Shown: positions 1,862-48,605 of the stretch, piece after piece
Numbering within the stretch: position 1 is the first letter of the stretch
Layout: each line of letters opens with the position of its first letter
From: Craspedostauros australis
Lineage: Eukaryota
DNA length: 64,000 nt
Assembly (NCBI GenBank): GCA_030167865.1
Contig: JALAGF010003954.1
Location: 1-64,000 of the forward strand
Direction of reading: 5' to 3'
Position numbers and translations under genes: made by a program
The notes under the pieces: generated by a model
What the model saw: only the letters and a program-made list of their open reading frames with translations
What the model was told of the DNA's origin: nothing
Databases searched by the model: none

Positions 1862-4639
1862 TCACTCCTCTTCCTCAACATCGCTGTTGGTCTCAGCCAG
1901 TCTGGACGATTTGATGGACCGCACGCCGTCCTCCCATGTTGCGCGATCCATGTAAGCATCCAAATGAAAACTTGTCTCTTCATTCAGCACCTCGTACAGC
2001 TCCATCATTGACATGCGACTGTACGCGTCATCAATACCGTCGCTATCTGGTCTCCCACTGCAAAACGCCTGGAGCTCACTCAGTAGTTGGGGCTGTGGAA
2101 TCAGCTTCCTGAAATCTGGATGAGTGAACATATCTTTCTCATTTTCAGCCGCCATCCTCATTGCCGCATCTTTCAATAGGTCACAGTTGTGTTGATCGGC
2201 GAATATCAATGCATCAATCATGGTGTGCTTCGTGAGATGCTTGCGGACCAACTCCGCTTCAAGAACAAGCTTGAGTCGCCAGAAGCCGAACGCATTGGCC
2301 ACAAGGATCAGCTGTTGTAGATCGTCCTGCCCATTGAGGGTGGGGGCTGGTTGGTCCGTGCCATCATCGTCGGCGTCGTCATGAGTGGTGTTGGTGTTGA
2401 AGGATATCTCACCTGCGTAGATGCATTGGAGGACATGTCGGACGTGTTTTGATTGAAGGTTGGGAAGAGGGATGGTCGTTTGCAAGAGTTCAGTCCCATC
2501 GTGAGCGCCATCACCAGTGCATTGATGTTGGATTCCGGAGTCGATCAATGTCTGAATGGATGGGACAGTGACCACGAGGACTCCAGAGTTTGCCTTGATT
2601 GCTTGTTGTTCGTCACCTTGTTCACACAGGAAGGTCACGTCTGTCTTGGCTTCAGTGAGAACAGCGCTGCGTCGATCTTGGTCGATGCTGATGCTGGTCG
2701 CTGTGCGGGTTTGTGGGTTGTAGTGTTGTGATGGTGTGGTGATGATGTTTGTGTGGCTTTGTTTGTGCATTCGCAGCTGCATCTGCAATTGTGAGTTTCG
2801 GAAATTGAGGCTGGTGACACACTTCATGAGTAATCTCGTCAGGTTGATTTCTTCGTATGTACCCACCACATCGAAGGGTGTTTTGTGGTTGTCGTTCTCG
2901 ATGTCCATGTCGGCTCCGCATAACTTGACGAGGTACTCCACACACTCCAGATGGCCGTTGAAGCATGCCATATGAAGAGGAGTGGTGCCTTTGCGGTCTT
3001 TGCAGTCGACATCTGTCTCGCAGGATTCGACGAGGTACTCCACACACTCCAGATGGCCGTTGGAGCATGCCATATGAAGAGGAGTGGAACCTTTTCGGTC
3101 TTTGCGGTTGACATCTGCCTTGCAGGATTCCACGAGGTACTTGACACACTCCAGATGACCGTTGGAGCATGCCATATGAAGGGGAGTGGCACCGTTACTG
3201 TCGTCGCAGTTGACATCTGCCTGGTAGGATTCGATGAGATGCTCCACACACTCCCGATGGCCGCCGGAGCATGCCAAATGAAGAGGAGTGGGATCTTCGT
3301 TATCTTTGCAGTTGATATCCGTCTCACAGGATTCGATGAGGTATTTCACAAACTCCAGATGACCGATGGAGCATGCCACATGAAGGAGAGTGGGATCTTT
3401 GTTATCTTTGTAGTTGACATCTGCCTTGCAGGATTCGATGAGGTACTTCACACACACCAGATGGCCGTCGGAGCATGCCAAATAAAGGAGAGTGGAACCT
3501 TTTCGGTCTTTGCAGTTGACATCTGCCTTGCAGGATTGGACTAGGTATTTCACACACTCCAGATGGCCGCCGAAGCATGCCAACTCAAGGGGAGTGGGAC
3601 CGTCGCTATCGTTGCAGTTGACATCCACCTTGCAGGATTCGACTAGGTATTTCACACACTCCAGATGGCCGCTGAAGCATGCCAAATCAAGGGGAGTGAA
3701 ACCTTTATGGTCTTTGCAGTTGACATCTGCCTTGCAGGATTCGACGAGGTACTCCACACACTCCAGATGACCGTTGGAGCATGCCATATGAAGGAGAGTG
3801 GTGTCATTGCGGTCTGTGCAGTTGACATCTGCCTCGCAGGATTCCACGAGGTATTTCACACACTCCAGATAGCCGTTGAAGCATGCCATATGAAGGGGAG
3901 TGGGACCGTCGCTATCTTTGCGGTTGACATCCACCTTGCAGGATTCGATGAGGTATTCCACACACTCCAGATAGCCGTTGAAGCATGCCATATGAAGGGG
4001 AGTGAAACCTTTACGGTCTTTGCAGTCGACATCTGCCTTGCAGGATTCGATGAGGTACTTCACACACTCCAGATGGCAGTTGAAGCATGCCATATGAAGG
4101 GGAGTGAAACCTTTACGGTCTTTGCAGTCGACATCCACCTTGCAGGATTCGATGAGGTACTTCACACACTCCAGATGGCAGTTGAAGCATGCCATATGAA
4201 GGGGAGTGAAACCTTTACGGTCTTTGCAGTTGATGTCTGCCTTGCAGGATTCCACGAGGTATTCCACACACTCCAGATGGCAGTTGGAGCATGCCATATG
4301 AAGAGGAGTGGAACCTTTTCGGTCTTTGCAGTTGACATCTGCCTTGCAGGATTCGATGAGATACTCCACACACTCCAGATGGCCGTTGGAGCATGCCATA
4401 TGAAGGGGAGTGGCACCGTTACTGTCTTTGCAGTTGACATCTGCCTGGTAGGATTCGATGAGATACTCCACACACTCCTGATGGCCGCCGGAGCATGCCA
4501 AATGAAGGGGAGTCCGACAATAACTATCTATGATCCTGTTGATGTCAACTCCGAACTTCTTCTCGTTCCATTTCTTCATCGCCGACAAATCGCCTGCAGC
4601 GACGGCATCGAGGAGCTGTTTGCTCGTGACACGCGGCAT
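1862..4639 (-). CDS. Ankyrin-repeat (16x) + BTB/POZ-BACK protein, 925 aa, intronless
   Basis: ATG at 4639 (MPRVTSKQLL). Sixteen 34-aa repeats of the form xKDxxGxTPLHMACxNGHLECVxYLxESCxADVN, then BTB (TDVTFLC...LQCIYAGEI...LILVANAFGFWRLKLVLE) and BACK-like (ALIFADQHNCDLLKDAAM) segments. Confidence 0.9.
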   Translation of the reverse strand: MPRVTSKQLLDAVAAGDLSAMKKWNEKKFGVDINRIIDSYCRTPLHLACSGGHQECVEYLIESYQADVNCKDSNGATPLHMACSNGHLECVEYLIESCKADVNCKDRKGSTPLHMACSNCHLECVEYLVESCKADINCKDRKGFTPLHMACFNCHLECVKYLIESCKVDVDCKDRKGFTPLHMACFNCHLECVKYLIESCKADVDCKDRKGFTPLHMACFNGYLECVEYLIESCKVDVNRKDSDGPTPLHMACFNGYLECVKYLVESCEADVNCTDRNDTTLLHMACSNGHLECVEYLVESCKADVNCKDHKGFTPLDLACFSGHLECVKYLVESCKVDVNCNDSDGPTPLELACFGGHLECVKYLVQSCKADVNCKDRKGSTLLYLACSDGHLVCVKYLIESCKADVNYKDNKDPTLLHVACSIGHLEFVKYLIESCETDINCKDNEDPTPLHLACSGGHRECVEHLIESYQADVNCDDSNGATPLHMACSNGHLECVKYLVESCKADVNRKDRKGSTPLHMACSNGHLECVEYLVESCETDVDCKDRKGTTPLHMACFNGHLECVEYLVKLCGADMDIENDNHKTPFDVVGTYEEINLTRLLMKCVTSLNFRNSQLQMQLRMHKQSHTNIITTPSQHYNPQTRTATSISIDQDRRSAVLTEAKTDVTFLCEQGDEQQAIKANSGVLVVTVPSIQTLIDSGIQHQCTGDGAHDGTELLQTTIPLPNLQSKHVRHVLQCIYAGEISFNTNTTHDDADDDGTDQPAPTLNGQDDLQQLILVANAFGFWRLKLVLEAELVRKHLTKHTMIDALIFADQHNCDLLKDAAMRMAAENEKDMFTHPDFRKLIPQPQLLSELQAFCSGRPDSDGIDDAYSRMSMMELYEVLNEETSFHLDAYMDRATWEDGVRSIKSSRLAETNSDVEEEE
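2903..4535 (-). repeat. Tandem array of 16 x 102-bp units encoding the ankyrin repeats
   Basis: Near-identical segments such as 'cacacactccagatggc' and 'gcatgccatatgaag' recur with 102-nt periodicity. Confidence 0.95.
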
Positions 4640-5271
4640 GTTGAGATGATGGTCGATGGTTGGATGGATGATTGGTGTTGGAGGAAGCATGCGGAGTGCG
4701 GTAAGTATGGAATGGCAGAGACGTCGATTGTGTGCTCCGATTGTACCGTTCAATGAAAAGTGGGTTGATATCTTCTGGTGATGTGTTCGAGCAGAGTGCG
4801 ACCAGGGGTTTGTGCACGAAGGTATACTGTGTTGCTGTCCCTCGCCTTGTCTCGCTTTCTTTGATGGCCCCTTCTCTTGGCCGCGCTGTTTGTTGTTGGT
4901 GTGGATCCTTCTCTTGGTCGTGTGCGAACAACAATCAAGAGAGAGAAGTTGTTCTTTTCTGTTGTCATGGAACAAAGAGAACCATCGACTCGTGGGATCG
5001 TTCTGGTCGATCGATGACTGATGTCACCAATCGTGAATCAAAGGAGGGGACACGTCATCATTTTGTTGTTGACGTCATCCAACTCGATGTCAAAAACAAA
5101 ATCGGCAGCTTTGCCCTTTCCTCGATTTCATTCCAAATCGCTTGTTGCACCAACCGTCGAGCGCAATCAATCATAATACTTGCTTACGCGCACACGCACC
5201 AAGATTCACAGATCATACTTTCCAACATCATACCTACGTACGATACTCATACTCACCCGTATCCATCTACA

Positions 5272-6742
5272 ATGCATTCGCCGAAGTCGCTGCTCGCCGG
5301 CCTCGCTCCAGCCTTCATCCTGGTGTTGATCCATTCAGAGCATGGCCAACCCTCGCTCTTTGCTGATGCCTTGGCAACGACCAAGCCACTTGACAGAGTC
5401 CCACCATCAGCAGCCATCGCGACTATCGATGCCGCACAAACACAGCAGATAGATCGAGTCAATCAGAGATCGTCAGACACACTCCCAGCAACGGCATCAA
5501 TTCAAACCCAGATACAACCGCTGACATCGATCCACATCCTGTCATTGAAATGGCCCAATGACAAGGAATTCTCCAAGCCAGTTCGAGATCTGTGGAAATG
5601 GAAAGACGAAGTTCTGGGAGATGGCAGGGACTTCTTCGTGCCAAAGCCGAAGACTCTTTCCGCCTTGCAATCCGACATCCTCTCAAACACAGATGATTGC
5701 GTGCAGGAATGCACGGTCCTCTCCAACTGCGCGCGGCTGGAAATCATCCTCATCACAAATCAGACGTTGCAGGAGGCCCAAATCCTCGACATCTCCCAAC
5801 GATTTGCGTCGCAGATGTTGGCGGCAGACCACACCAAATCCGCCTTCTCCTTCATCTTGGACGATCCTTCGCAATCCATACCGCGTGATATCCCGGACGC
5901 GCCGCACGAAGACGCTGTCCAAATTGCATCGGCATGGCATCGTATCGACGGTGCAGAGGCCGTGTGCCGCCATCTCGCGTTGATCGCCGCGGGGTTGGCC
6001 GATCGTCCGCGACGGCCTGATCGGGGCGTCGTCTTCCGGCCCTTCTCGTCACGCGATGCGCACATCCTGCTGCAACTCAAACGCACGAAGGATATTGCGT
6101 CGGGTAAGGTCGGCAATCAGTTTTTGGAGTACGCGTTGCGGGCCGGAAAGCGAGCGCGGTCCGTGGACGTCGTGCCGGATATTGCCGAGCTCAAAGCGTA
6201 CGGATCCGGTGATTCCAAGTACTCTTCAGAAGCACCACGATCGTTGATGCAGCGCGTGTCGCAGGTAAGTTTGTGCTTCACGGCGCAGAAAGCAATTTTG
6301 ACGCTTGTTCAAGAATGGCAGACATGCAGTACGGAAGATTGCTGCGTCGGGATGGAGTGGAATACAATCTTCCATTCTCTTGACAATCCTTCCTGCTGTG
6401 TCTCACCTCGACTTGAACAATTATCGCCATTCTATATTCGTAATGCTCAACACTGCCCTTCAACCCCTTCGCACAAAGGCCGCCATACAGTTGGCTGTGG
6501 AACCAACTGTCGAGGAATGTCTGGAAGACATCGACGCCAATCTCAACTCGGACAGCGTGAAGGACTTCAGAAACCAATGTGAAAGCATGGCCACCAACGA
6601 TGCAGAACTCAAGTACATTCGGTCGCTGCTGCATGGTCCCACAATCGCCTTGCGCAAAGGACAGTTTTCCAACGAGCACGCCACTGAAGCTCTAGACCAC
6701 ATCAAGATTAGTTTTGAGTCTTGGCAAGATTCACGTCATTGA
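5272..6742 (+). CDS. Glutamyl-tRNA reductase (HemA)-like protein lacking the NADPH-binding domain; predicted plastid presequence; exons 5272-6264 and 6479-6742 (418 aa)
   Basis: Hydrophobic N-terminus. Motifs VLSNCARLEI (cf. LSTCNRxE), EAVCRHLALIAAGL, AHILLQLK (cf. QILGQVK) and ALRAGKRARS. A phase-0 GTAAGT...AAG intron precedes exon 2, which carries LLHGPTIALR (HemA dimerisation motif). Confidence 0.75.
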
Positions 6743-6978
6743 TGCCAAATTCAAATTTGAGAGACGTGCCACACAGACAGGGTGTCATTGGTGATCTTGG
6801 GATGTTGATGGTGGGAGACCAAATCGTGACCTGTCATGCACAATTGAACAACATCAAATCCCTCCAACAACAGAGACGGCAATACCTATCAATAGCGACA
6901 TTAAAGTAGCAGCAGTATTGGTCACTCTACGTATGACAGTAAATACCACCGTACGTCATCGGCAAACGATCTGTTGAT

Positions 6979-8952
6979 ATGACCTCTCGCACGGCAGACG
7001 AAGAAGACAGCAACAGTCAGCACTTTCCTCCCGACCGGGACGGACACGAAGATGGAGGAGCTGGATGTTCAGAAAACCTTGACGATAGCATCTCGGTTCT
7101 TTCCATGACCTCTATCGACTGCTATAAGACCAAGAGCAGCAGCAACGCTGTCGTTCGCAATGACTTCCTCGACGCTTCTGACGATGAACACGACGAAGAT
7201 TCGTACTCCTACTATTCTTCGTCATCGTCATCTTCCGCATCGTCGTCATTTTCCTCATCGGGGTTCTCTGACATATCAACCCCATCACGTGCGCATAATC
7301 GTCTCCATGACGACGACGACGACGATCATAGTGATGGTGATATTGATATTGACGACTATCATCCATCTCATCGACCTGCGGCAGATTATGGATTCACCTC
7401 CAATGCAGGCTTCGGCATGACTCGGCGCAGGGCTGTTCCGCGATGCGACGAAGACAAAGATGATGGCGACGGCGACGGTGTATTTGATTTCACGAGAGGC
7501 AAACGCAGACGCAGTCGGCGCTACGACTATGCAGAACAGAATGGAAGCGATTCTGATGGGTATCGTTCATCGAACGAATCACCATATCTGAATCCAACAA
7601 GAGGACGGAAGGGGCGGTACCGAAGAAGACGGTACACACAGCCAAATATCGTGAGCTTGCAAAGATTCCTCATCACGAATCGATCATCATCAACGATCCT
7701 TCTGTTCGCTTCAATCGCCGTCTGGATTATTGTGCAGCTTCACACCAACACCTACACCAACACTCGCACCCAACCCACTTTGAAAAGAGCAGCGCCTGCA
7801 CCCACCAATGATTCGGAGCAAAAAACGATCAAAGCACAAAGGCTTCGTGGCCATGGGCTCAAGAACAAACCGCCATCACGTCAGGCTTCTGTCGGAGATG
7901 CCACATGGCGCGCCGCGCACAATGCGCTCAATGGTTTGGCCAAGCAATTCAGCAGTTTTCCCAGCGATGCAGATGCCATACCGGAAGGATGCGAATTGGA
8001 GGAATGGCAACAGCAACACTTGCCCAACTGCAACGACATCCATGAGGTGGACATGATGGATTTTCTGGCGGTTGCCAATCCGAAGAAATTTCGTTCAACT
8101 CTGCACTATGACGCACCGGGATACCTGGGAAAGGGGATGTGGCGATCGGTTTGGCAGATCACGCCACGGTATGGCCTCGAGCCTTTCGTGACCGACAGAG
8201 TCGCGATCAAGTTCATGAAATTGGAACATGATGTGGAACCTCGGAACTTCGAACGGCACCGCAGAGAGGCGATGGTGATGGAGCATTTTACTTCATCACC
8301 GCACGTCGTGTCCATATACGGCTACTGTGGCAACACCGTGATGACGGAGTACATCCCGCAGGATCTTGAAATCCACCTGCAACAGATGAGTGCGGACGAA
8401 AACACTGCCGAGAGGCGTCTGGATCTCGCGCTTGGCGTTTCCAGGGCCATCGCCACGTTGCACTCGAATGACAGAAGCCCGACCGTTCACGCTGATCTCC
8501 AGGCCAAGCAATTTCTTATCGACGCCGACGGCCACATCAAGGTGAACGATTTCAACCGTTGCCGTTTCATTTCGCACAAGAATGGGACCGATGAAAAGTG
8601 CGCGCTGTACATTCCCACGGCACCCGGCAGATCTCGTTCACCGGAGGAGTACTCGTTGAGTTCATTGGATGAGAAATTGGACGTCTACAGCCTTGCCAAC
8701 GTCCTGTACTTGATCCTAACTGGTCGCAAGGCATGGGCAGATTTTGGTTTCGCCGCAGCGAAGAAGCAGATCCAGCGTGGCAAGATGCCTGCGATGCCAA
8801 CATCCGGGCTGCAACCCGCCGACATTCCGTTGGCGAACTTGATTGCAAAGGCCTACACGTACGATCCAAAACAACGCATCAGTGCAGCTGATCTTGTGGC
8901 GGAGTTGGAGAAGTTGCAGCGTACCATGAACGTGCAGAAGGTACAAGTTTGA
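6979..8952 (+). CDS. Type II membrane protein kinase-like protein (atypical motifs, PKDCC/VLK-like), 657 aa
   Basis: Low-complexity N-terminus, Arg-rich stretch, single TM (TILLFASIAVWIIVQL), then kinase motifs LGKGMWRSVW, VAIK, HADLQAKQFL, NDFN, RSPEE and DVYSL. Confidence 0.85.
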   Translation: MTSRTADEEDSNSQHFPPDRDGHEDGGAGCSENLDDSISVLSMTSIDCYKTKSSSNAVVRNDFLDASDDEHDEDSYSYYSSSSSSSASSSFSSSGFSDISTPSRAHNRLHDDDDDDHSDGDIDIDDYHPSHRPAADYGFTSNAGFGMTRRRAVPRCDEDKDDGDGDGVFDFTRGKRRRSRRYDYAEQNGSDSDGYRSSNESPYLNPTRGRKGRYRRRRYTQPNIVSLQRFLITNRSSSTILLFASIAVWIIVQLHTNTYTNTRTQPTLKRAAPAPTNDSEQKTIKAQRLRGHGLKNKPPSRQASVGDATWRAAHNALNGLAKQFSSFPSDADAIPEGCELEEWQQQHLPNCNDIHEVDMMDFLAVANPKKFRSTLHYDAPGYLGKGMWRSVWQITPRYGLEPFVTDRVAIKFMKLEHDVEPRNFERHRREAMVMEHFTSSPHVVSIYGYCGNTVMTEYIPQDLEIHLQQMSADENTAERRLDLALGVSRAIATLHSNDRSPTVHADLQAKQFLIDADGHIKVNDFNRCRFISHKNGTDEKCALYIPTAPGRSRSPEEYSLSSLDEKLDVYSLANVLYLILTGRKAWADFGFAAAKKQIQRGKMPAMPTSGLQPADIPLANLIAKAYTYDPKQRISAADLVAELEKLQRTMNVQKVQV

Positions 8953-19340: not shown

Positions 19341-20647
19341 TTAGTTGCGCTTGAACTCGGCTGGCATGTTGTCTGGGAGCCATCCCATCTTGGTGAGGTT
19401 GACCTTCATTCGCTGGAAGCAAAGGTCGTATGCGGTGTGAATGTCGTTGATGACGATGTGATCTGGCTTGTCGCGCATCAGCTTGGTTGTGTCAAGCTCA
19501 TTGTTTGATCGTGGCGCCTTGATGACCTTGGCCTGCTCTTCGAGGTTGAAGTTCTGGTAGGTGTAGGATGGGTCGATGTACTTCTTGTACAAGTCGAGGA
19601 CCTGGTTGTGGGAGATGACGCCTGGGTTGGTGAAGTTGTACACTCCGGTGAGTCCCTTCTGCGCCATGGCCAGAGAGAGCGGGAGCATTTCGTGGAGGAT
19701 GGTCATGGAATTTGGGATGTTGACGACCTTCTCGTACTTGACGATCTTGGTCACGAAGTTGCGGTGGAAGAGGTCATCGGACACCGGCATGCGGACGCGC
19801 AGAATGAGGCAGTTGGGGTAGTTCTTCAGCATTGGCTCCATGTATCCCTTGGTCTCGCTGTAGAAGGACCCGTCGAAGTTGGGAGTGTCCTCCTCGGTGA
19901 AACCAATTCCGGATCCCTCAGGGTGCTTCTCGTCGTAGACGAAGATGCATCCGGTGGCGTAGACGGTGCAGTGGATATTTCTCTCGTAGCACAGATCGGC
20001 AAGGTTCAATGTTCCAATGACGTTGGTGCGCATGGTTTCCGGCTTGTGATCCTCGCACCAGTCAATGTTTGGTCGCCCGGTGATTCCGGCGGCGTTCAGC
20101 ACGTGGGTTGGCTTGATCTCATCGAGCTCCTTGGCGACGGACTCGCGGTTTTGGATGCGGCTCTCGGCGATGAACAATTCAATATTCTCTGCGTTTGCGA
20201 TCGTCGTCACAGATGGTATGGATGTCGGTCGTATGTATTATAGAATACGTGGCATTGATGGGTCATGTCACGAAGATTCAATGAGGGAGGCACAGGTCAG
20301 GATTCGTGTGGTACGTACATGCACAATCGCAACGACCAGCAGGCTCGATTGTTGCTAACGCAACTTCATCACTAGCGTGACACATCACATCGGTATGGCT
20401 GCATTCGTAAACAGACGGAAAGCAGAGAGGGCTTCCTTCCAACCTTCCCCTCTTCGCATCCGTCAATCAGGCGCAGTCAATCGAGGCAAGAGAGAGGAGG
20501 TAACAGAAAAGGTAGTGGCAGCGTCATTCCACCAGCAAATGGAGAAAGATCTCGCTCACCTTCCTTCTTGACGAGCTCGCCCATCATCTGTCCGATCCAT
20601 CCTGTCTTTCCTCCAAAGATGAGGACCTTCTTCATTTCGGTTGCCAT
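19341..20647 (-). CDS. UER1: Bifunctional NDP-4-keto-6-deoxyglucose 3,5-epimerase/4-reductase (NDP-rhamnose synthesis); exons 20647-20560 and 20188-19341
   Basis: Exon 1 gives KVLIFGGKTGWIG (Rossmann). Exon 2 gives PTHVLNAAGITGRPNIDWCE, YATGCIF, GSFYSETK, LRVRMP and APRSNNELD. The phase-1 GT-AG intron is consistent. Confidence 0.93.
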
Positions 20648-21129: not shown

Positions 21130-23767
21130 TCATTGAATAACACAGCAGACCACACCAGGTGGACAGCCCAAGGCACCGGCGATTCCACCCTGATCTTGCC
21201 CGCCTGCACCAGACGAGCCGGACGTTCCACCCGGAGTCGCTTCGCCACCCTTTCCGCCCTTGATGATCTCAGCAAGCTTCTTCAGGTTGGTGGATTCTTC
21301 GAACATGAATTCGTCCGCTACTCGCGCGCCGTACGATCCTTCCACGATACCCTTGAACTGAGAGAGGCTGAGACTGTCGAGGATGGTGACCAGCGCTGCA
21401 TTGGCATCGATGGAATCTGGCGGAAGAGCGGTGATCTTGGAGACGTCCGTCTTCAGGCGCTTCAGGATCTCTTTGTGGCTCAGCGCACGGATGGCCGCCA
21501 CGCCCGACGCGTCCAGCGCCTTCGGTGCCGTTGCCATGACGACGCCGTCGTTTTCGTCGTCGCCAGAAATTTTGCCGTCGATGAATCTCTTCTGGTACAC
21601 GATCTTCAGCGTGTTCTGGAGGAACGCCTTTCGACACCAGGCTCGCGCGATTTTGCCGCTCGACGTTTTGGGCACCGTTCGCGGTTGCAGGAGCACAATC
21701 TCAGCAACTGACAGCGAGTGTTCCTGGTTGACGACTCCACGCACTTTCTCGGCAAGGCTCTTGCAGATGGCATTCGCTTCGTTGCTCGGCGGCACGTCAC
21801 GGAGTTCCATGATGAGAGCGACTTCCTCCCCACCTTGGCGTGTCGGGTCGATCGTGAACGCGGCGGAGCATCCCGATCGCAGACTATCCGAGCTCTCCTC
21901 AGCCGTTGCCTCGATATCCTGAGGGTAGTAGTTGCGACCGCCCACGATGATGAGGTCCTTGAGTCTGCCGCAGATAAAGAGCTCCTTCTGATGCATGAAA
22001 CCAAGATCGCCAGTTCGCAGGTACTCCACATCGTCCATGCCTTCTATCGTTGCATGGAAGTCGTTCTCAGTCTCCAGCTTCTTGTGGTAGTAGCCAAGTG
22101 CCTTGCTCCCGGAGTTGATCCAGATCTCGCCGACCTCACCCTCGCCGAGCTGCTGACGTGTGTGCCTGTCCACAATCCGCACATCCACGCCCTGAGAGTC
22201 CGGATATCCGCAACCGACTAACGTGGACTGCGTGCCATTGGCCACACCTGCCTTGGAGAATTCCTCCATGACGACCTTGCCATCAACTTCCAGTGATTGT
22301 TTGGAAACGGTGATGATCTGCTGTCCACCAGAGCAAACGAAGACGGTATGTTCCGCCAACCCGTAGGTCGGGAAGATTACCTTTCCCAGGCCGAAGGGAC
22401 CGAAGCATTGGTAGAACCGCTTCATACCATCTTCGTCTACCGGCTCTGCTGCATTGATGATGTGCCGAACGCTCGACAGCTCCAAAGGTCGCTCAGCGTA
22501 GTTGTCCTTGTGGAACTTGCGGGCTGTGAGCTTGAAAGCGAAATTTGGTGCCTGCAAGTGGGTGCCTCTGTACTTCGATACGGCTTCAATCCACAGCATC
22601 GGCCTCTGCACGAACGATATGGGCGACATGTAGTATCCACTTCCACCGCAGTACAGCACACCCAGGTACGATCCGATCAATCCCATGTCGTGGTATTGCG
22701 GCAGCCACGAGACCACCACGGTGTCAGTCTTCGCTTTGAGCTCCGATGTGATGATCGTGAGGTTGTGTGCGAGGTTGCCGTGCGAAATCATGACACCCTT
22801 CGGCTCCGATGTGCTGCCCGATGTGTATTGCAAAAACGCGATGTCATCTGCGCTGCTCTGGACAGGCTCCGCTAGCTGCGCGCCAAACTTTATTTGCTTG
22901 TCATCCGTCGAGATCCACTTCAGCTCCGGCCATGTCGCAACCTTCTTTGTGAACCGTGTGATGGCATCTCGAATTCCTGTAAATATCAAGGATCTCACCG
23001 TGAGGTAAGCACGAATGCAGCGGTGTGAGTCATAGCGACATACGACGATTCAAACGCGCAAACTCAGACGCATTCATCAATCCACACACTGTCTTACGTA
23101 CCTGCAATCTTCTTGATGTGGTTGTATTCTGCACTTGTCAGCGCGAATTTGGCGTCGCAGCTTTTGGTGATTACGGAGAACATGTTGAGGGTATCTCGCT
23201 TCATTGGATTTGGTGGGAAGACGGGCACTGCAATGACACCGACCTTGAGACAGGCAAGGAATGCAACCATGAACTCCAGCGAGGGAGGGTACACCAGGAC
23301 GGCCCTGAATATTTCAAGACGGTGGTTCCATTGGCAATGGTCGTGATGGGAAATACAGTGTGAAAGAAGCAACGCAACAGACAACAGAAAGCAGGGAAGG
23401 GTTAGCTGTTTGTTCGTTGACTGTCGTAGACTGTCATTGACTTTCGTAGACTGTCGTTGAGTTACAAACACTCTACCTCTCATTCTCTACCTCGAACCTT
23501 GTTGCAAACACAGATGAGCATCTCAACGAAAGTAGACACAACGCATGCATCACCGTACCTGTCGCCTCTTTTCAAGCCAGAGCGCTGCAGATGCGCAGCC
23601 AATCCTGCCGTGCGCTTGTCAAGCTCATCGTATGTGTACGTGCTGGAGATCTTGCCAGCTTCCGGACCAGGTGTGATGAAAGAGAACGCCTGCTTGTTCG
23701 GAGCATTGGCAACTTGCGTCGCGAATCGATCCAGCAACAGGTCCACCCCATTGCTTCCGTTCGACAT
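21130..23767 (-). CDS. Fatty acyl-AMP ligase (FAAL)-like adenylation domain fused to an acyl carrier protein, ending in CaaX; exons 23767-23559, 23304-23102, 22976-21130
   Basis: AFLQYTSGSTSEPKG, SWLPQYHDMGLIG, YGLAEH, FAAL-type insertion before LVGCG, LRTGDLG, GRLKDLII.GGRNYYPQDIE, PKTSSGK; carrier motif LDSL; C-terminus CCVIQ*. Both introns are in phase. Confidence 0.9.
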
Positions 23768-24069: not shown

Positions 24070-25662
24070 TCAACTTGTACTGTGGAATTCATACCGCAAT
24101 CTCGCCGCTTGTTTTTCGTTGGACCATTGATGGGTCGATACGGAGCTCTTGCTGCTCTCAGGAGTTCCAACGACGAGCATCCTCACAATATCTGCATCTC
24201 CCAGATACGCGGACCATCGAAAGAAGCTGGACGATGCAGTTCCGATCAGTTCTTTGCGTGCCTTGGCGAGAAAGCAAAAATCTTGAATTGCGGTTGGATT
24301 GGAGATCACGCGCGTCACAAATCCTCGTTGCTCAAGTGAGGTTTGGATATCCTGCACGATGTGGTTGTTGTAACGGCTCGCAATTGCTATCTTGCTGCCT
24401 GGTGGAAGCGATCCGAACACCTTGGCAGCGATGGCACTTGCATCGAGCTCTTCATACTGCGTGCCTTTGGTGCCACTCTCCGATAGCTCAGTCTCGAAGT
24501 TCCGAAAGTGCTGTTTTGAGCCCGAGTACGGAGCAAGGTGAATAGCCAGTGCATTAGAAGAGCGCGGAGAAAGATGAGATTGGAGTTGCTCAGAACAAGA
24601 CGAGAGAAGACAAGAAAACAAATCGGTCATTGGACTTGATTGTCATTGAGAATGGCGCTTTCTCGTAAGGCGAGTGTTCACCACATGTGCTCGCACGAGA
24701 CATTTCGCTTCCGGGAGACCAACAGGACACTGACTTACAAAGACGTGTTCATCATCGTCGGGAATCTCTTTGCAGCATCCAGCCTCATCGATGCGAAATT
24801 GTTGGCGAATTGCGTCGAAATGCAGGTCGACAAAGAGTTCCACATTCATGCTCGTCAGAGTGACGAATGGAATTCGCAGTTCTGCATCATCCGTTGTCTC
24901 ATTCCTGCGATTTGCAACAGTCGGAGATGTCGTGGCAGGATTCTGCAAAGCTTCGGCCATTCTTCTCACATGTTCCAATGCAAGATGAACCTTGCCTTCG
25001 TCATCGCTGTTGACCATGGCCCTCATCGTGGGATCATCCAGGGATGATCGACGCTGCTCTTGTGATCTGCGTTTGTATTCATCCGAACTGATGGTGCGCC
25101 AATCCCAGGACCGCAAATTTGGAAAGCACCGTCGCATGATCTGTCTCGTCCCGACTGCAAGTTGCTGCTTTGCGAGCTGGTCTTTGCGACGATTGCGCCC
25201 GGACCCGGGTCCTGCCCCATCGTGGGAGACGAGAAGGATATTCATGCTCAGCGCGTGCTGGTGCTTTGCCAATGCCTGCAATGCAAAAGCATGTGCCAAT
25301 CCATTCAAATGATTCCCCATCTCACCGCTTTGCTGCACCACAATGGAAGCCTTCAATGGCGTTGCCGTGGCAGCCACCGTGCTGCTTCTGTTCCCATCGT
25401 GTATCTGCTGGCGCACCTTCTCTGTAGTTTTGGCTGATTCGGATTGCTGCACCATACTCGGATTGGGATACTTCCAGCCTTGGCAGACGCAAAGCAACGC
25501 GATGCATGCGAATGCCCACGGCAAGCGCCGTCGCTTTTTCAATCGAGTCGTCTTGATGCCGTCGTTGGCAGTCTCCACCTTCCCGTCCCCAACCAAAGCG
25601 GCTTCCGATTGGACAGCATCATGTCGATGGCCCTCATGCTTCCCTGCAGCCCGATGCGCCAT
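24070..25662 (-). CDS. Type II membrane glycosyltransferase, GT11/fucosyltransferase-like; exons 25662-24739 and 24510-24070
   Basis: KKRRR followed by a TM (LPWAFACIALLCVC). Motifs SGEMGNHL (cf. GRLGNQ), VF|HFRNF (cf. VHVRRGD) and DFCFLAKARKELIGTASSSFFRWSAYLG (cf. NSTFSWWGAYL). Phase-0 intron. Confidence 0.7.
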
Positions 25663-29001: not shown

Positions 29002-30924
29002 ATGGCGGATTGGAACTTCCATGGAGACGCGGACGCACAGTTCCTGCTCCAGCATCCTCGGTGCACGTCGGAAGCTCCATTGGCATGCGGGGAGTACGAT
29101 CGCGCCGAAGCATGGTGTCGGGATCGGATTCGGGAGGGTGCGGACTTTCTCTTCGATCGTCATTTGTTCGAGTGCGAAATCAATGACGCTTCGATGAAGC
29201 TGGGCATCCACCATCAGTCACTGCTGTCGCTATTGCGCAATATTCACGTTCATCACGTCAAGATCACCGCGCCGAAGGTGAGAGGTGGGATCTCGTGGGC
29301 TGCAACATCCAACAGCAGCGGGGCTATTGCGCAACGTGGCTTCGGAAACACCAAGCAGGGATTTCAAGACACACGAAATGAACAAGTTGGACAGAAACCA
29401 ACGTCTACTCCTCAGACGAACGTGTACCAAGCAATCGTTGGCGAGTACCAATCGGGAACATCCCTGCATGAGCTCGCAAAGTCCATCAACTTCCCACCCT
29501 ACTTGCTATGCCGATATGTCGTCGAACACGTGACGAGCCTCTCTGGTGGCAAAAAGGCAATCACGGCTGCAATGAGAAACCCCATCGATGTGCTTGGCAC
29601 CACCGACGACGTCCTGCTGCCGCAGTACAGATCATCGGAAGATCATCACTCAGGGATTGTGCAACAATTGAAAGAACCGGGTGGTGATACGAGTAGTACG
29701 AAGTGGAAGGGCAGGATCGATGACGTTTCGCGTTTGGCACTTGAAGTGCAGTTCGCCATCGACATGGATCCCATGTACGGTCCGCGCCATGACCGGCAGC
29801 GCCACATGGTTGGCATCGAGTACGAAGTGGTGTTGGAGCAAAAGTTGGCAGAGATGAACTTACCGTTCGAGACAGAGACAGACCTGCGGGAGCGCGGCAC
29901 CTCGCGAACGCCCGACGTTGTACTGAAGGTCCCTATCGCAATTCGTGTCGGTGCGCCCATCTCGCGATCGAACAGCTCTCGCACGATATCGGGCAACCAA
30001 GATCAGCGAGAAGATCAGCGGAGAGGTCTGAGCAAAGCTAGTATGCAGCGATCATCGGAAGAAGCACAGGTTGGAGAATGGAAGCTGGTGTCGTGGATCG
30101 ATTCCAAGGTACGTCCATTCACAAAACAATACGATCTTGCACTTTGAGTCAAAAAGTGGAGCAGTGAAGCAACGGAACCTGATTCCTTGGTCGCAGCGTA
30201 TTGCGTTGTGCTTTCGCACTGTCCGCATTGCTTCTGCTTGTACTCATACTCCACACCCAACTCACACATCACGCCTTCATTCATGCAAATGACTCAAATG
30301 CACTCGATTCGACAGGCAATGTTCGGAGATGTTGGAACCCACCTTACGGACGTTGTACCACAGGCTGAAAGTTACGTGCATCGATTTGGACCAGGTTTAA
30401 TACTGTATTGGTTCGGGCACGCACCGTTGGAACGACTAACTTCTTCTTCTACTACTGATGCTGTTGCTGTTGCTGCTGCTGCTGCTGCTGCTGCTGTGGC
30501 CGACAACGCGTCGTGGCACTCGCAATCGCAAACGAACAACCATCACTCGAGACCGGCAGGGTCAGCCGCATCACTAACTTCATCAACGCAGCCCTCTGTC
30601 ACGAATCCATCGGTTGCGCAGGAAGAAGGATCAGAAGCAAAGGTAGAATCTGCGACACAAACGCATCACGAACGCTTGCAACAAAATGGAGGAAATGCAA
30701 GTTATCCGAACAGACATCAAGTCAGAAACACTCACGACGCTCGCTCATCGCATCGTTGGAATCACGAGGCACGGCAGAAAGAACGCGCAAGCAAGGATGT
30801 CATAATACTGGGTTGGGATCTGCCGCTCGAATTCATGGTACCGAGTGGGGAGATACGGACACGGCGATCCATCAACGACATTGCGACGTCATGGTTGCAG
30901 CGAAAAGTCGCTGCAAATCCTTGA
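29002..30924 (+). CDS. CDIN1: CDAN1-interacting nuclease 1 (C15orf41-like, PD-(D/E)xK); exons 29002-30108 and 30316-30924
   Basis: DPMYGP, GIEYE..L...L, FETETDLRERGTSRTPDV, WIDSK|AMFGD, QAESYVHRFGPGLILYWFG. Phase-0 intron. Confidence 0.88.
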
Positions 30925-37657: not shown

Positions 37658-40600
37658 CTACCGGCTGCCAACACCACCGTCATCATGTTCCTCCTCGTTT
37701 TCGGATTCGGAGGAGTAGTCGGCCTTCATCTTTGACGAGAGGACTGTGGAAATGATGGATGGCATAGACAGGGAGGGTCTGCGCTGGGCAGGTGGATCGA
37801 CTATCCATTCGTTGTATCCATTGTTCGTGCCGCCCGGCGGGCTCGTAGTCCCTGTTCCCGTTGTCCCAGTCATCATTCCAGACTTGGATGATTGGATTGA
37901 GTACTCCTCGTCGCTGGTATGGTTGTGAGCTTGATTGGGGCCATTTGGGGGAACTCCGTGTATCCTCTCCAGCCGCTCCAAGCATGCATCCAGCGCATCT
38001 GCGATGCTGTAGTGCAGGCGGATCATGGAGGCATGTCGGTAGGCAGCGACAGCGCCGCCTTGGAAGTACCGATGCAGGTCGGCTGGGTTGGGATCCGAAA
38101 ACAGCTTGAAGTAGTCCGAGTACCGCACCTGCGGCACGATGGTGGTGGATCCGACGAATTCCTGCGTCATCATCGTGGATGTGAACCCCACCGCTGCCTC
38201 CAGATCATTCAGGAAGACGAACTTGGCCTTCATGTCGTTCTTCAGGTACATCTCCAGTGCGGCCAGCAGGAAGCCACCACGCCAACTGGCCTCTTGGTCA
38301 CCGCTGGACCAGCGATTCGGCCTGCCGACGCCGCCCTTGGAATCGAAGAAGAATGGCACGACGTGCGGATTGCACTGGCAGGCGATGAAGAATTGACAAT
38401 TCATCATCTCGGCAAGTCCGTTGATGGGGATGTCCGTCTCGATGGAGCCATCGAAGTAGGTTTCGCCGCCCTTGATCTTGATGGAGCCGTCCCTGTCCTT
38501 GTATCGCAGCTGGACAGGCTGGACGAATCCAGGCACGGCTGCGCTGGCGATGACGGCAGACGCGATGGTCACGTTTGGTGCCGAGATGTAGCTCAGCAGC
38601 AACGGCGGTGCCTTCTTCGTGGTGGAGCTGAGCGTGATACAGAGGGCGCGGCCTGTCTTCTTGTACGCTTCCTCGAAGGTCATGTCGCCGCACGTGAACC
38701 ACCGGATCATGTCCAACCATTCGTTGACGTCAAACATCGCTCCCGTCTTGACGAATGATTTTATGCACTCGGGCCAATTGCGCGCGAAGCATTTGAGCTT
38801 CTCGCCCAGGATCTCCGGTATCATGTCACGTCGAATCTCCTCATCAGTGCGCGTGCAGACCATGGCACCGATCACGCTTCCCGCGCTTGTCCCAGAGATG
38901 ATGTTGGGCAGGCAGTCCGTCTCTATCAGTCCCATGATGTGCCCGAAGTGGTAAAGTCCCATCATGGCGCCGCCGGAAAGGCAGAGCGCTGTCCGACCGT
39001 AGGCTGCTCGTGCACGTTTGATGAAATGGATGAGATGATCCCTGTGCAATGGTGGGAGTGGCGCCTTGGATCCAGCTGCGTTGTCGCTCCCATATTCATG
39101 CGTATGTGCCTGATTTTTGTTGTTGTTGGCGGCGGCATTCGTATTGCCATGCTTGGGAGTGGAAGCACCACCGGCAAAATCGGCAGACGCGGCGCCGGTG
39201 TTTCTGGTCTGCGCGTTGGACATGGCAGAGGAACGTCGCGTGGCGTCGTTCGCGCCTGTGCTCCACGCAGTGGAATGCTCACCAACGCTGTTGAGATCGT
39301 CGGTACTTTCCATGTGGACCGGCAACGTCGTCCAATCCACGACGGACTTCCAGATCTTGCTCTGCTCGCCACGGACCTTGCTCGTGAGCTTCCTCTCGTA
39401 GTACCGTTTGACAGCGGAGGCGTCCATCGCCTTCATGCCGGATTCTGCGGTCGTGCCCCCCAGCGATTCCGCCTCCTCCGTGATCCACCGCAAGGTCTTG
39501 ACGACCTCGGAACAAAAGTCACGCACTATCTTCTTCGGTTCGCCGGTGTTGGTGTAGGAGAATAGATCTTCGCTCATGACACCGCCGACGTTCTTGCGCG
39601 TGCATTGCTGCAGCACCGCCAACGCCAGAAGGGCATCCTCCTTGCGCCGCGCGGCACGCAGATCGACGATGAGCTGCCGGACGAATGACCAGTTGTAGCG
39701 GTAGCTGGTGTTGTCCTTCATGGAGTTCTGCCACGCGTCCCGCTTCTGCGAGACGTCCAAGGCCGAGGCGAACTGGTACCACGAGTCGTAGGACTTGGCC
39801 TTCGACATTTTGCTGCGAAGCACGCGGTGTCGCGGCGTCGCGATGACGGTCTCCGCGAGGTAGATGCCCAGACGGATGATGATGTAGACGCCGAGTTCCA
39901 CCATGATCAAGAAGTAGGTCAATGCCAGGATGGGCCAGCGCATGACCTTGCCGCTGGTGCTGTGGAGTCTGCCAGGGATGATGGAGAGTATGCAAAGGAC
40001 GAGGAGGACGCCGCCGAAGGACCTCCAGAGGAACACCCCGACCTTCCAATCCATCAAGGGCCATTCCCTCGAGAACCACATCCAGAAGGTTTGTCGCGGC
40101 TGCTGCGCCAGGGAGATGATCTCTGTCATGTTGAGCAGCTCTGATGGGCTGATGTGTCCATCCTGGTTGGTGTCGAAGTACTGCACAATGAATTCGGAGG
40201 CCGCCGCAGTGCGTTGCTGCGCGTTCTGGGGAAACTTCTCCATCATCTCCGCCAGTTGCGAACCGAAGTGCTGCAGGGGCTGCTGCGACGGTGTTGTCCA
40301 CGTGGGTAGCAGGAATTGCACGACGCGATCGTTCGCGAGCTGGAAGTACTTGGCTATGTCCTGCATCAATCGGTGGCACAGGATTGGGATGGAAGCAATG
40401 ATCATTGGCATCAGCTCATCCTTGTACACATCGTAAATCGTTTCCAAATTCATGGTGGGTTCCGAGCCAATATTCTGAGCGTGTTCGTGGGTCTGAGGTT
40501 GAACGTGTTCGTGGGCCTGTGCCTGCGCCTGTGCTTGATTTCGAGTTTGATCATTAGTTTGATCATTTGTTTGATCATGAGTTTGAGCCTGGGAATGGGC

Positions 40601-40897
40601 ATGGGAGCATTCTAGCTCATGATGATCTGGCACTGAGGCTGATCCCGAGTTCAAGGCAGCTCGTGTTGTCGCAGGCGGCTTTTCTGCTGCTGGATGCATG
40701 CCTGCATTCATTGCTTGACTTGATGACGTGGTTAGATCAGCAGCGCACGCGACAACGGGATCGCTTTGTTTGCTGTGATTGCAATGCGCTGCCTGCATCT
40801 GCGGCAGTTCCTGCTGTTGTTCTCGCATGTGAATGTGCAACCTTGGTTGTTGCTCTTGCAGGTGTGATTGCGTTGCATGAGGTTCCTCCGTCGCCAT
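37658..40897 (-). CDS. Patatin-like triacylglycerol lipase (SDP1/TGL4 family) with N-terminal EF-hand and TM segments, 1079 aa
   Basis: YGRTALCLSGGAMMG, ISGTSAGS (GxSxG), DMTFEEAY, ASAAVPG, FDGS, QCNPHVVPF; DUF3336-like SYDSW..A.ALD; EF loop DTNQDGHISPSE. Confidence 0.92.
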   Translation of the reverse strand: MATEEPHATQSHLQEQQPRLHIHMREQQQELPQMQAAHCNHSKQSDPVVACAADLTTSSSQAMNAGMHPAAEKPPATTRAALNSGSASVPDHHELECSHAHSQAQTHDQTNDQTNDQTRNQAQAQAQAHEHVQPQTHEHAQNIGSEPTMNLETIYDVYKDELMPMIIASIPILCHRLMQDIAKYFQLANDRVVQFLLPTWTTPSQQPLQHFGSQLAEMMEKFPQNAQQRTAAASEFIVQYFDTNQDGHISPSELLNMTEIISLAQQPRQTFWMWFSREWPLMDWKVGVFLWRSFGGVLLVLCILSIIPGRLHSTSGKVMRWPILALTYFLIMVELGVYIIIRLGIYLAETVIATPRHRVLRSKMSKAKSYDSWYQFASALDVSQKRDAWQNSMKDNTSYRYNWSFVRQLIVDLRAARRKEDALLALAVLQQCTRKNVGGVMSEDLFSYTNTGEPKKIVRDFCSEVVKTLRWITEEAESLGGTTAESGMKAMDASAVKRYYERKLTSKVRGEQSKIWKSVVDWTTLPVHMESTDDLNSVGEHSTAWSTGANDATRRSSAMSNAQTRNTGAASADFAGGASTPKHGNTNAAANNNKNQAHTHEYGSDNAAGSKAPLPPLHRDHLIHFIKRARAAYGRTALCLSGGAMMGLYHFGHIMGLIETDCLPNIISGTSAGSVIGAMVCTRTDEEIRRDMIPEILGEKLKCFARNWPECIKSFVKTGAMFDVNEWLDMIRWFTCGDMTFEEAYKKTGRALCITLSSTTKKAPPLLLSYISAPNVTIASAVIASAAVPGFVQPVQLRYKDRDGSIKIKGGETYFDGSIETDIPINGLAEMMNCQFFIACQCNPHVVPFFFDSKGGVGRPNRWSSGDQEASWRGGFLLAALEMYLKNDMKAKFVFLNDLEAAVGFTSTMMTQEFVGSTTIVPQVRYSDYFKLFSDPNPADLHRYFQGGAVAAYRHASMIRLHYSIADALDACLERLERIHGVPPNGPNQAHNHTSDEEYSIQSSKSGMMTGTTGTGTTSPPGGTNNGYNEWIVDPPAQRRPSLSMPSIISTVLSSKMKADYSSESENEEEHDDGGVGSR

Positions 40898-46736: not shown

Positions 46737-48605
46737 TGGTTGCTCTGTTCAGTCATTCAGGTGCTGTCGCTGTTGGTGGGTGCCGTTGTTACGCATGGTA
46801 GCATCAGTGTCATTTCGCCTGCCAGAGCCACATAGTCGCTTTAGTTTTTATCTCATGTTTTCACGTCTTGTCGTGGATCTCTTTCCTTGGTGGTGAAGTC
46901 AACGCACCCCTGCGTGTGTGCTTGGTGGTATTTTTTTTTTCATTCGCACTTCTGCCTCCTTTGCGAACTGCGTGCGCAACTTGCCCAAGCCATTCGCAAA
47001 CAATCCACGATTTGATTTTGTACGAGTCGCTTCTGGTTCTGCAACCAAGTCGTGGTGGTTTTGCAAACAATAGAGGAGAAGTCCACGTCATTCGCCAATC
47101 ACAGCACATTGTACGCGTGTCTTCTGTGTCCAGAAAACCCATCTTGGGTGTGATATTCGAACAATGATAATTCATGAAAAGTCCATTGACGCGATCGTTA
47201 AGTCCTGTGCGCTCGGAGTGGTCAAACACTACATACATTCAGTCATGCATTCTGCAAATGACATATGCAGATTCGCGAACAAAAGGCCGAGGTAAAAAGC
47301 TCCATCGTGTCCAGTGAGCCATAAATGGGTTGGGGAAACGGAGCAATAATCGTTTGTGAATGTTCGGCAGACCTTGGCGTTTCGGAGAAAACTGCAGATA
47401 GCTTTCCATTCCCACACGTTTGGGTCCACCGTAACCACACCATCCACCACCACCAACTGTTTGGTTTTGTGATGCTGCTGATTGTGTCCGCCAGCGCAGC
47501 AAAGCGCAGCACAGGAGCCAATCCCGAAACAGTACCGAGCAACCCAGGAAGAGGTGGCGATGGGATGAATTCGTGCACAGGAACCCATGAGCGAAAGCTC
47601 ACGAGCAACATGTGAACAAGGAACGCCATCCAACAAAGAGGTGCCAACAACAACAACGCACCGCCAACACCACCACCAACAACAACACCAAACAAGAAGA
47701 GAAGCGCGGGAGGCGCCGCGAACAAACAATCAATCGGTTGCCCCAATCGCATACAACACAAAGCAGATCCGCACATCGAGACGAGGAGGGAGAGAGAGGC
47801 GAGAAGGTCGCAACCAACAAGGAGCAAAAGACAGCCCGAGAGATAGAAGCGGAAAGAAACAACAGACAGGAAGCCAACAGCAACCAAATCCAGGGGCGTT
47901 GGAACCACACAGAACGAGAAAGAGAGACCGGTGCGACAAACAAAAAGCGCGGGTGATCGTGATTCTTCGCACCACACAACAACACACAGAACAGCTGCGC
48001 ACGACAAAGTAGTGAAACCGCGAAACCGGATCAGAACCACGACATCACAAATCAAGCAACGCACAACAGAGATCACACAAAAACTCAAACACACACACAA
48101 CGTCATACCAAAACGAGCACAAGTACGAGCACAAGTACGAGTACGAGTAGGCACTCTTTGTGAACAATCGCAACAAGGCAGAGTGAAAGCAGCACTCTCT
48201 GGCACCCCACCTCTTGATCGTATTTGAACACACGAAGGAGCAACCATTACCTCTTGTTCAAGCAACAGCAAGTATTTGTACGTACACGGAGCAACAACGG
48301 AACCGCCGACACCTGCATTACCAATTGCCAATCGCCTTCCCAATTTGTCGTTCGCCATTCGTCAGAAACAGACGACATAAACACGCAGCGAAACGCATCA
48401 CAGAACAGAGCAGAACAGAGCCATTCATTCCGCGAGACTCTGAGGAGGCACGAGACGCCGCAACGCCCCACAAATCAAGCAGAAGGGGAAGTAATCAACA
48501 ACAGCAACAACAGCAACAACAGCAACACAACAACACAACAACATAACAGCAACACAACACAACATTACCACTCTTGAGACCAAAGAACACCTCCACACAG
48601 CAAAG

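Follow-up and report, generated by a model that had tools for sequence, protein, structure and literature searches.

A FAAL-ACP protein of Craspedostauros australis with a conserved CaaX-type tail: a candidate membrane-anchored module for coenzyme A-independent acyl transfer

What would a eukaryotic cell do with a fatty acyl-AMP ligase (FAAL) that carries its own acyl carrier protein (ACP) domain and ends in a CaaX-type lipidation signal? The question is raised by a 64,000-nt stretch of Craspedostauros australis DNA (assembly GCA_030167865.1, contig JALAGF010003954.1, forward-strand positions 1-64,000), which as a whole is called the window here and in which such a gene lies at 23767..21130 on the minus strand. 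According to the textbooks, acyl-coenzyme A (acyl-CoA) supplies eukaryotic glycerolipid assembly, and acyl-ACP occurs only in plastids and mitochondria. The answer favoured here, to which sequence comparison lends about even odds (a probability of roughly 0.5), is that the protein would be a prenyl-anchored FAAL-ACP from which a membrane O-acyltransferase receives acyl groups in trans and without CoA. If true, the eukaryotic cytosol would possess a second fatty-acid channel that bypasses CoA, and the protein would be one of few prenylated metabolic enzymes. Diatoms and their algal relatives rank among the main producers of marine lipids and are targets for biofuel and omega-3 production.

The gene as read from the sequence has three exons with 2259 nt of coding sequence and encodes 752 amino acids; all of its parts lie on the minus strand. 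Exon 1 (23559..23767) begins with the ATG at 23767 and is bounded by a GT donor at 23558. It is separated by intron 1 (23305..23558, GT..AG, 254 nt) from exon 2 (23102..23304), which covers positions 51-101 of the Pfam AMP-binding profile, and exon 2 is separated by intron 2 (22977..23101, GT..AG, 125 nt) from exon 3 (21130..22976). Sequence and Pfam matches assign to exon 3 the remainder of the adenylation domain, the ACP, the linker, the tail and the stop; it closes with tgc tgt gtt att caa tga, the TGA stop being 21132-21130. In-silico splicing of the three exons gives a single open frame of 752 codons, in which excision of intron 1 restores the conserved junction GDR/AVLVYPPSLEF and excision of intron 2 gives the junction KKIAG/IRDAITRF. 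The spliced frame is co-linear with the full-length homologue P0001, which pairs residues 9-752 with residues 9-752 of the window protein at 62% identity, and the alignment is gap-free over residues 9-306, a range covering the exon junctions at residues 70 and 138. Short GT-AG introns are present in other genes of the window too, and its G+C content is about 53%. The gene coordinates 21130-23767 and the Ser codon at 21373-21375 given in a preliminary description of this DNA proved exact, and the Gly-rich linker and the GVVCCVIQ-stop ending that it reported are both present in the sequence.

The ligase occupies the N-terminal part of the protein. Positions 1-47 of the Pfam AMP-binding profile correspond to residues 15-69 in exon 1, exon 2 matches the same profile, and exon 3 matches it at 1.4e-46. 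When the protein minus its first 138 residues was scored with NCBIfam, the top matches were FAAL models (PRK05850 at 6e-100, FadD32 at 1e-89, PRK12476 at 3e-89 and PRK09192 at 1e-86), and the typical models of fatty acyl-CoA ligases (FACLs) reached about 1e-32 or weaker, with the exception of PRK07768, a model named long-chain-fatty-acid--CoA ligase, at 1e-94. A sequence search of the PDB found the FAAL of the Synechococcus olefin synthase (7r7e-g) as the best match at 1e-88, with 39% identity over about 440 residues, followed by the Legionella FAAL 3kxw at 3e-83; the mycobacterial FadD32, FadD23 and FadD28 were also among the nearest solved proteins. An AlphaFold2 (AF2) model of exon 3 was built on a 68-row alignment (A1) and has a mean predicted local distance difference test (pLDDT) score of 80.1; a Foldseek search of the PDB with this model placed the same FAAL structures on top (E 3e-41). 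In all 68 rows, T51-S52-G53-S54-T55..K59, Y204-G205-L206-A207-E208, G322-D323 and K436-T437..K441 (exon-3 numbering) are invariant.

Two further regions bear on the type of ligase. The region of the FAAL-type insertion (GGQQ...LVGCG, exon-3 residues 217-256, 22207..22326) pairs with its counterpart in the olefin-synthase FAAL in the alignment with 7r7e/f/g, a comparison made among FAALs; the Pfam AMP-binding match takes up 269 residues for 234 profile positions, about 35 residues extra. The C-terminal adenylation subdomain (exon-3 residues 340-459, 21598..21957) matches DIP2-like AMP domains (PF23024 at 7.9e-07 and PF24919 at 2.1e-06), and Mug62-like signatures are matched there as well. Several source annotations suggest instead an ordinary long-chain acyl-CoA synthetase, for example the JGI homologues named 'acyl-CoA synthetase (AMP-forming)/AMP-acid ligase II', and the score of PRK07768 would agree with them. 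This reading is nevertheless very improbable, as the remaining FACL models fall far behind the FAAL models, the top structural relatives are FAALs, and a fused carrier domain with an invariant Ser is not needed by a CoA ligase. Apart from PRK07768, FAAL profiles outscore FACL profiles, and these comparisons firmly identify the predicted protein as a FAAL-type ligase, in agreement with the preliminary description.

The carrier domain (exon-3 residues 489-573, 21256..21510) is recognised by its AF2 helices and by a sub-threshold Pfam match. The helices of the model span exon-3 residues 489-496, 500-515, 528-531, 534-547, 554-557 and 564-573, with block-mean pLDDT values of 79-96 across residues 491-570. 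One of these helices begins at Ser534, which is Ser672 of the whole protein, lies in the LDSL motif (codon at 21373..21375) and is the presumed site of phosphopantetheine attachment. It is unchanged in 68 of the 68 aligned rows, and the preceding D533 is kept in at least 90% of them. Relatives carry the same domain: PP-binding was present in 24 of 34 relatives scanned with Pfam at E <= 1e-3, and the homologues P0003 and P0013 are annotated with PF00550. The invariance of the Ser, together with an ACP modelled as a confident helical bundle, clearly indicates a carrier domain with an invariant Ser in the window protein, which had been proposed earlier from the LDSL motif.

Behind the carrier domain are found a Gly-rich variable linker (21187..21255, pLDDT < 50), which is unconserved among 121 aligned sequences, and a tail block (21133..21186) that the homologue alignment defines as G-I-A-G-A-L-G-C-P-P-G-V-V-C-C-V-I-Q. 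The block contains Cys742 (codon 21165-21163), Cys748 (codon 21147-21145) and the CaaX box from Cys749 to Gln752 (21144-21133). In the AF2 model, exon-3 residues 577-614 have a pLDDT below 50 with the exception of residue 601, and the tail is disordered there. Tail statistics were taken from the best 120 homologues of a protein search, which are 53-64% identical to the window protein; 8 of the 120 bear the name of an organism, and all of these are diatoms (Cylindrotheca, two of Pseudo-nitzschia, Nitzschia, a Bacillariaceae metagenome-assembled genome, Chaetoceros, Helicotheca and Amphora). A Cys is found at position -4 in all 120, Ile (108) or Val (12) at position -2, and V, T, I or A at position -3 in 116. 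The final residue X is Q in 61, L in 35, M in 20, S in 3 and I in 1. Upstream of the box, Val stands at -6 in 119 and Cys at -5 in 59, and every one of the 120 has the Cys of a Gly-Cys-Pro triplet at a distance of 6-8 residues ahead of the CaaX Cys, with the sequence GCPPG in 119.

Conservation of the CaaX box in orthologues had been left as a check in the preliminary description, and the box is kept in 120/120. More distant relatives differ. A canonical CaaX occurs in none of 59 complete bacterial relatives, among which a Cys at -4 is found in two (C-T-D-A and C-K-V-R). A wider survey of the family took the best 150 representatives at 50% identity (149 of them new, 61 shorter than 1300 residues and 88 longer), and none of the 88 long ones has a Cys at -4. 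On these alignments, the tail is clearly not a matter of chance, and strong purifying selection on the exact CaaX register and on the upstream Cys is indicated. A mis-called C-terminus was considered and rejected: an unseen 3' intron is unlikely because transcriptome-derived homologues (MMETSP/EukProt P0071, P0088 of 'type:complete', P0102 and P0103) end identically, and the same endings argue against a transcript spliced to a different C-terminus, which the preliminary description had allowed for.

In CaaX proteins, a final Q, M or S leads to farnesylation by farnesyltransferase (FTase) and a final L or I to geranylgeranylation by geranylgeranyltransferase I (GGTase-I), and a Cys adjoining the box is often palmitoylated. 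The switching of X between the FTase and GGTase-I classes within the clade fits selection for prenylation as such. Another explanation of the Cys-rich end is that it is no prenylation signal but is only S-acylated, possibly by the protein's own acyl-ACP thioester, or that it binds a metal or a partner. In 21 of the 61 short representatives, Cys clusters (CPCC.. or ..CC) do not fall into a CaaX frame and are frequently accompanied by stretches of Lys/Arg; this would agree with such a role, as would the 12 residues before the box, which are more conserved than a prenylation signal needs. The exact register in the diatom clade is not required by a loose S-acylation or metal site, since the Cys at -4 and the Ile or Val at -2 are without exception and X is restricted to Q, L, M, S and I; moreover, CC-a-a-X endings recur in separate subclades of the survey (P0123, P0139, P0148, P0169 and P0215). 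An end without prenylation is therefore quite unlikely. The near-invariance of the block G-(L/I)-A-G-A-L-G-C-P-P-G-V, far beyond what a prenylation signal needs, is an observation in its own right, and this block might serve in docking, as a further place of lipidation or as a signal for processing.

Prenyltransferases act in the cytosol. The window protein is expected to be cytosolic because its enzyme domain begins directly at the N-terminus, at residue 15; a location in the plastid or in the lumen of the endoplasmic reticulum was rejected, as a signal or transit peptide would not fit before this start. The following sequence of steps is proposed. The CaaX Cys would be prenylated, with farnesyl predicted for the window protein from its final Q and geranylgeranyl for the 36 of 120 orthologues in which X is L or I. 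One or both of the nearby Cys residues may be S-acylated as a second signal, and an endomembrane would then bear the enzyme on its cytosolic side. At this site the enzyme would convert free fatty acid and ATP to acyl-AMP and, with no use of CoA, charge its own phosphopantetheine arm with the acyl group. The acyl-ACP would be presented in trans to a membrane-embedded acceptor enzyme, which would most likely be a glycerolipid O-acyltransferase of the DGAT2 or MBOAT type. An anchored FAAL-ACP is highly probable on the sequence evidence, and the acyltransferase as its partner is a tentative assignment, at somewhat less than even odds. The preliminary description had proposed a membrane-tethered, CoA-independent acyl-loading module, and all the checks it suggested that can be made by computation favour this proposal.

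The DGAT2 or MBOAT type is the most likely acceptor because members of the same clade swap the lipid-type tail for such a domain behind the ACP. Among the 61 short representatives, 11 end in CaaX and 21 in the Cys clusters mentioned above; among the remaining 29 are truncated fragments as well as proteins extended by another C-terminal domain. Of the 34 relatives scanned with Pfam, five (P0127, P0144, P0150, P0154 and P0162) carry a DAGAT domain (PF03982, the DGAT2/MGAT family) behind the ACP and one (P0203) carries an MBOAT domain. When the ACP-DAGAT part of P0144 served as the query, 16 clusters were recovered in which DAGAT occurs together with AMP-binding, DIP2-like AMP or PP-binding domains. 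The nearest named relatives of the fused DAGAT domain are an Eimeria acyltransferase and the DGAT2 of plants and green algae, and an xPHG core is kept in 8 of 14 aligned fused domains, with green-algal DGAT2 likewise reading xPHG; an exact search of the DAGAT fusions for HPHG, the DGAT2 core motif, gave almost no match. The DAGAT fusions have only 0-1 Cys within their last 25 residues, so that members of the family carry one or the other, a tail of the lipidation type or a membrane acyltransferase domain. The fused same-clade relatives would thus narrow the partner, which the preliminary description had left unnamed, to acyltransferases of the DGAT2 type or MBOATs. The window polypeptide itself has no DAGAT domain and stops after the tail; the clade is common with the fusions, the architecture is not.

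Trees were built on the ligase-ACP region, with P0217 and P0218 labelled together with the fusions by clustering, although neither has a Pfam DAGAT match. The Cys-tailed, CaaX and fused forms make up one clade apart from the PKS/NRPS-type FAALs, those of polyketide synthases (PKS) and nonribosomal peptide synthetases (NRPS), with a support of 99 in FastTree (68 rows) and of 100 with a branch of 0.61 in IQ-TREE (42 rows). Within the clade, the DAGAT-fused forms adjoin the diatom clade in FastTree (support 83) and the Cys-rich forms adjoin it in IQ-TREE (support 80).

Two sets of relatives outside these patterns may be mentioned beside the fusions. The proteins P0152, P0156, P0220 and P0224 of the eukaryotic clade (858-1120 residues) have C-terminal extensions after the ACP without any Pfam match, which may be other fused acceptors. 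P0271, P0272, P0278, P0285, P0287 and P0292 (460-816 residues) have PP-binding and DAGAT but no AMP-binding; they are genuine ACP-DGAT2 fusions or else predictions that lack their N-terminus. With the ACP-DAGAT part of P0144 as Atlas query, the matches were bacterial ACP-PlsC clusters scoring no higher than 0.81, a lead at most.

Several results weigh against a prenyl-anchored FAAL-ACP that serves an acyltransferase. The PF00550 match on the window protein (exon-3 residues 506-570) is below the gathering score, with 17.1 against 20.8 bits, and every NCBIfam FAAL match lies under its curated cutoff, for example with 335 against 775 bits, for the query that lacks the first 138 residues. A literature search on diatom farnesyltransferase found nothing relevant. 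No acyltransferase (DAGAT) gene was found among the 33 of the 54 window open reading frames (ORFs) of at least 200 residues on which Pfam was run. The His of the xPHG core is missing in 6 of the 14 aligned fused DAGAT domains. The order of the subclades differs between the two trees, so the fusions are members of the family and not demonstrated closest kin. Long relatives of the PKS type exist, with 88 of the 150 best representatives exceeding 1300 residues, and FAAL-PKS proteins are reported from diatoms, as Bacillariophyta, in the FAALPred paper (PMC12820801).

The last two points lead to the classical role of a FAAL, in which the protein would be a free-standing module that primes a PKS or NRPS encoded elsewhere in the genome, with the anchor doing no more than bringing the pathway to a membrane. 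The long relatives that were scanned or placed in trees look like PKS/NRPS loading modules, and two long forms, P0141 and P0159, adjoin the short clade in FastTree. PMC12820801 further states that characterised FAALs all load an ACP, mostly in PKS/NRPS pathways, and counts 2.9 FAALs per diatom genome. On the other side, the clade of lipid-tailed and acyltransferase-fused forms stands apart from 12 of 14 long forms in FastTree and from 4 of 4 in IQ-TREE, and no ketosynthase (KS) or condensation (C) domain was found by Pfam in any scanned member of this short clade. Likewise, KS, acyltransferase (AT) and C domains are missing from the gene and from the 33 scanned window ORFs, which is weak evidence in a eukaryote. 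The Pfam run on these ORFs also found no thioesterase (TE), reductase, PKS or NRPS domain, and the preliminary description, which had noted no KS, C, TE or reductase domain in the gene or the window, was right to this extent. The classical role is considered unlikely. If the partner were a PKS all the same, the protein would still be, as far as the literature search showed, the first membrane-tethered loading module of its kind.

The bacterial relatives show what else can be joined to such a module. Generic FAALs, 32-43% identical to the window protein, were found at 80 bacterial loci; they serve as a negative control for the tail and as examples of fused acceptors and do not name the partner of the diatom protein. 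In 18 mid-size bacterial frames that were scanned there were 8 thioester reductases, 3 class I/II aminotransferases of the alpha-oxoamine-synthase type, 2 C domains, 3 PlsC-type acyltransferases, 1 acyl-CoA-dehydrogenase-like domain and 1 plain didomain, and the bacterial relatives follow the same modular logic, with the module joined to varied acceptors. The PlsC-type domain is behind the ligase in L049, L073 and L074, the last two of which also have an ACP before the ligase. The nearest feature neighbours in the Atlas are bacterial AMP-binding plus PP-binding clusters of 580-708 residues, with scores of 0.93-0.97; the FAAL-ACP didomain itself is ordinary, the CaaX tail is not. A recurrent protein of about 1000-1160 residues, mostly from Acidobacteriota, combines a FAAL, a carrier region and a thioester reductase (NAD_binding_4) at about 5500-8900 in each of L008, L012, L022, L028, L042, L044 and L038, and from its domains it presumably makes a fatty aldehyde or alcohol.

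This variety of acceptors bears on a further alternative, namely that the module is anchored and CoA-independent as proposed but serves another membrane enzyme. This enzyme might be an alpha-oxoamine synthase like serine palmitoyltransferase, which would make sphingoid or sulfonolipid bases, or else a reductase or an N-acyltransferase acting on proteins or lipids. The aminotransferase, reductase and C-domain fusions of bacteria are in its favour, as are the four eukaryotic extensions without a Pfam match. In the clade of the diatom proteins, on the contrary, the only recognisable fused acceptors are DAGAT and, in a single case, MBOAT, and an acceptor of another kind is rather unlikely.

Among known systems, the bacterial Aas (bifunctional acyl-ACP synthetase / 2-acyl-GPE acyltransferase) follows the same logic as the anchored FAAL-ACP with an acyltransferase partner: it adenylates a free fatty acid and loads it on ACP, from which a membrane acyltransferase takes it over with no CoA involved. 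The same logic holds for the ACP-FAAL-PlsC fusions, and PRK08633 (acyl-[ACP]--phospholipid O-acyltransferase) matches the window protein at 3.8e-26. This match is weaker than those of the FAAL models; unlike Aas, the window polypeptide has no acyltransferase, and the eukaryotic fusions are of the DGAT2 type or MBOAT and not of the PlsC type. Like CaaX proteins of the Ras/Rho type with a second signal (a prenyl group plus a nearby S-acyl Cys), the window protein has a disordered tail that ends in Cys-aliphatic-aliphatic-X, with extra Cys residues 1 and 7 residues upstream. It differs from them in that the cargo is a metabolic enzyme of 750 residues and not a GTPase and in that the block upstream of the CaaX box is near-invariant.

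The bacterial FAAL-ACP didomains and loading modules (7r7e-g) have the same adenylation fold, a putatively corresponding insertion region and an ACP directly behind the ligase. Unlike them, the window gene is eukaryotic, has introns, lies outside a gene cluster, and encodes a protein that is predicted to be cytosolic and has a conserved CaaX-type tail. The didomain is common in bacteria, and in nocuolin A biosynthesis a FAAL is fused to its ACP, according to PMC12820801, where diatoms are also described as the richest in FAALs among eukaryotes. FAAL-like domains are known from plants, fungi and animals (PMC8460268), and in the accessible text of PMC3760245 FAAL is mentioned only within coccidian PKSs. 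Neither a FAAL ending in CaaX nor a FAAL-ACP-DGAT2 fusion was described in the literature searched, which left out most subscription journals; the supplements of PMC12820801 and 12 of the 16 supplementary files of PMC8460268, as far as these were accessible, hold no relevant mention of diatoms, DAGAT or CaaX. Of the claim in the preliminary description that no example of this architecture had been described, the part on the lipid-anchored variant stands, and the part on the FAAL-ACP didomain as such does not.

DIP2 and Mug62, eukaryotic proteins with tandem FAAL-like domains, are a eukaryotic parallel. A C-terminal AMP subdomain of the DIP2-like type and the Pfam signatures of Mug62 recur in the window protein, and both are cases of eukaryotic FAAL chemistry. 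According to the domain organisation given in PMC8460268 and PMC9342972, DIP2 consists of two FAAL-like domains and a DMAP1-binding domain and lacks both ACP and CaaX, whereas the window protein has one FAAL, an ACP and a lipid-anchor signal. In PMC9342972, this tandem FAAL-like protein is reported to be needed for the conversion of diacylglycerol (DAG) to triacylglycerol (TAG) in yeast. Such a link fits the acyltransferase direction and parallels the DGAT2 fusions, and the window protein would offer a tractable model for the unexplained connection of FAAL-like DIP2 proteins to DAG/TAG homeostasis. A broader hypothesis may be drawn from the family as a whole: a widespread protist FAAL-ACP family would channel free fatty acids by way of acyl-ACP, in the cytosol and independently of CoA, into TAG or other glycerolipids, with the module either fused to a DGAT2 or MBOAT or prenyl/S-acyl-anchored beside one, and with the G-C-P-P-G-V block perhaps docking on the acyltransferase or being acylated by the protein's own thioester. 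This hypothesis is possible but doubtful. If true, the widespread route would be a biochemical precedent for the way in which DIP2-type FAAL-like proteins drive DAG-to-TAG conversion.

The other ORFs among the 33 scanned with Pfam belong to ordinary eukaryotic genes, which include ankyrin-repeat, kinase, major facilitator superfamily transporter, RNase PH, MraW-type methyltransferase, TruB and Utp11 genes. Adjoining the FAAL-ACP gene upstream is a gene at 24070-25662 (minus strand) with ORFs of 339 and 186 residues and no Pfam match, probably one gene with an intron or a frame change, which starts with a short hydrophobic stretch after a basic run. Its downstream neighbour at 19341-20210 (minus strand) encodes a 289-residue RmlD/NAD-epimerase-like protein, which may serve as the epimerase-reductase in the synthesis of a rhamnose-type deoxy-sugar. 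A 1079-residue ORF at 37658-40897 (minus strand), some 14 kb away from the FAAL-ACP gene, combines a patatin-like phospholipase with DUF3336, the architecture of SDP1/TGL-type TAG lipases; the proximity is probably coincidental. At 29002-30924 (plus strand), the TPD-motif domain PF14811 is spread over two consecutive ORFs (profile positions 3-75 and 85-125), and this split suggests an intron or a frameshift between them. A 1037-residue ORF at 1862-4975 (minus strand) consists almost entirely of ankyrin repeats, with Ank_2 matched at 1.4e-213 in 11 stretches. Lastly, the interval 48001-56000 has a strong positive AT skew of 0.17-0.34 over about 8 kb, unlike the remaining window.

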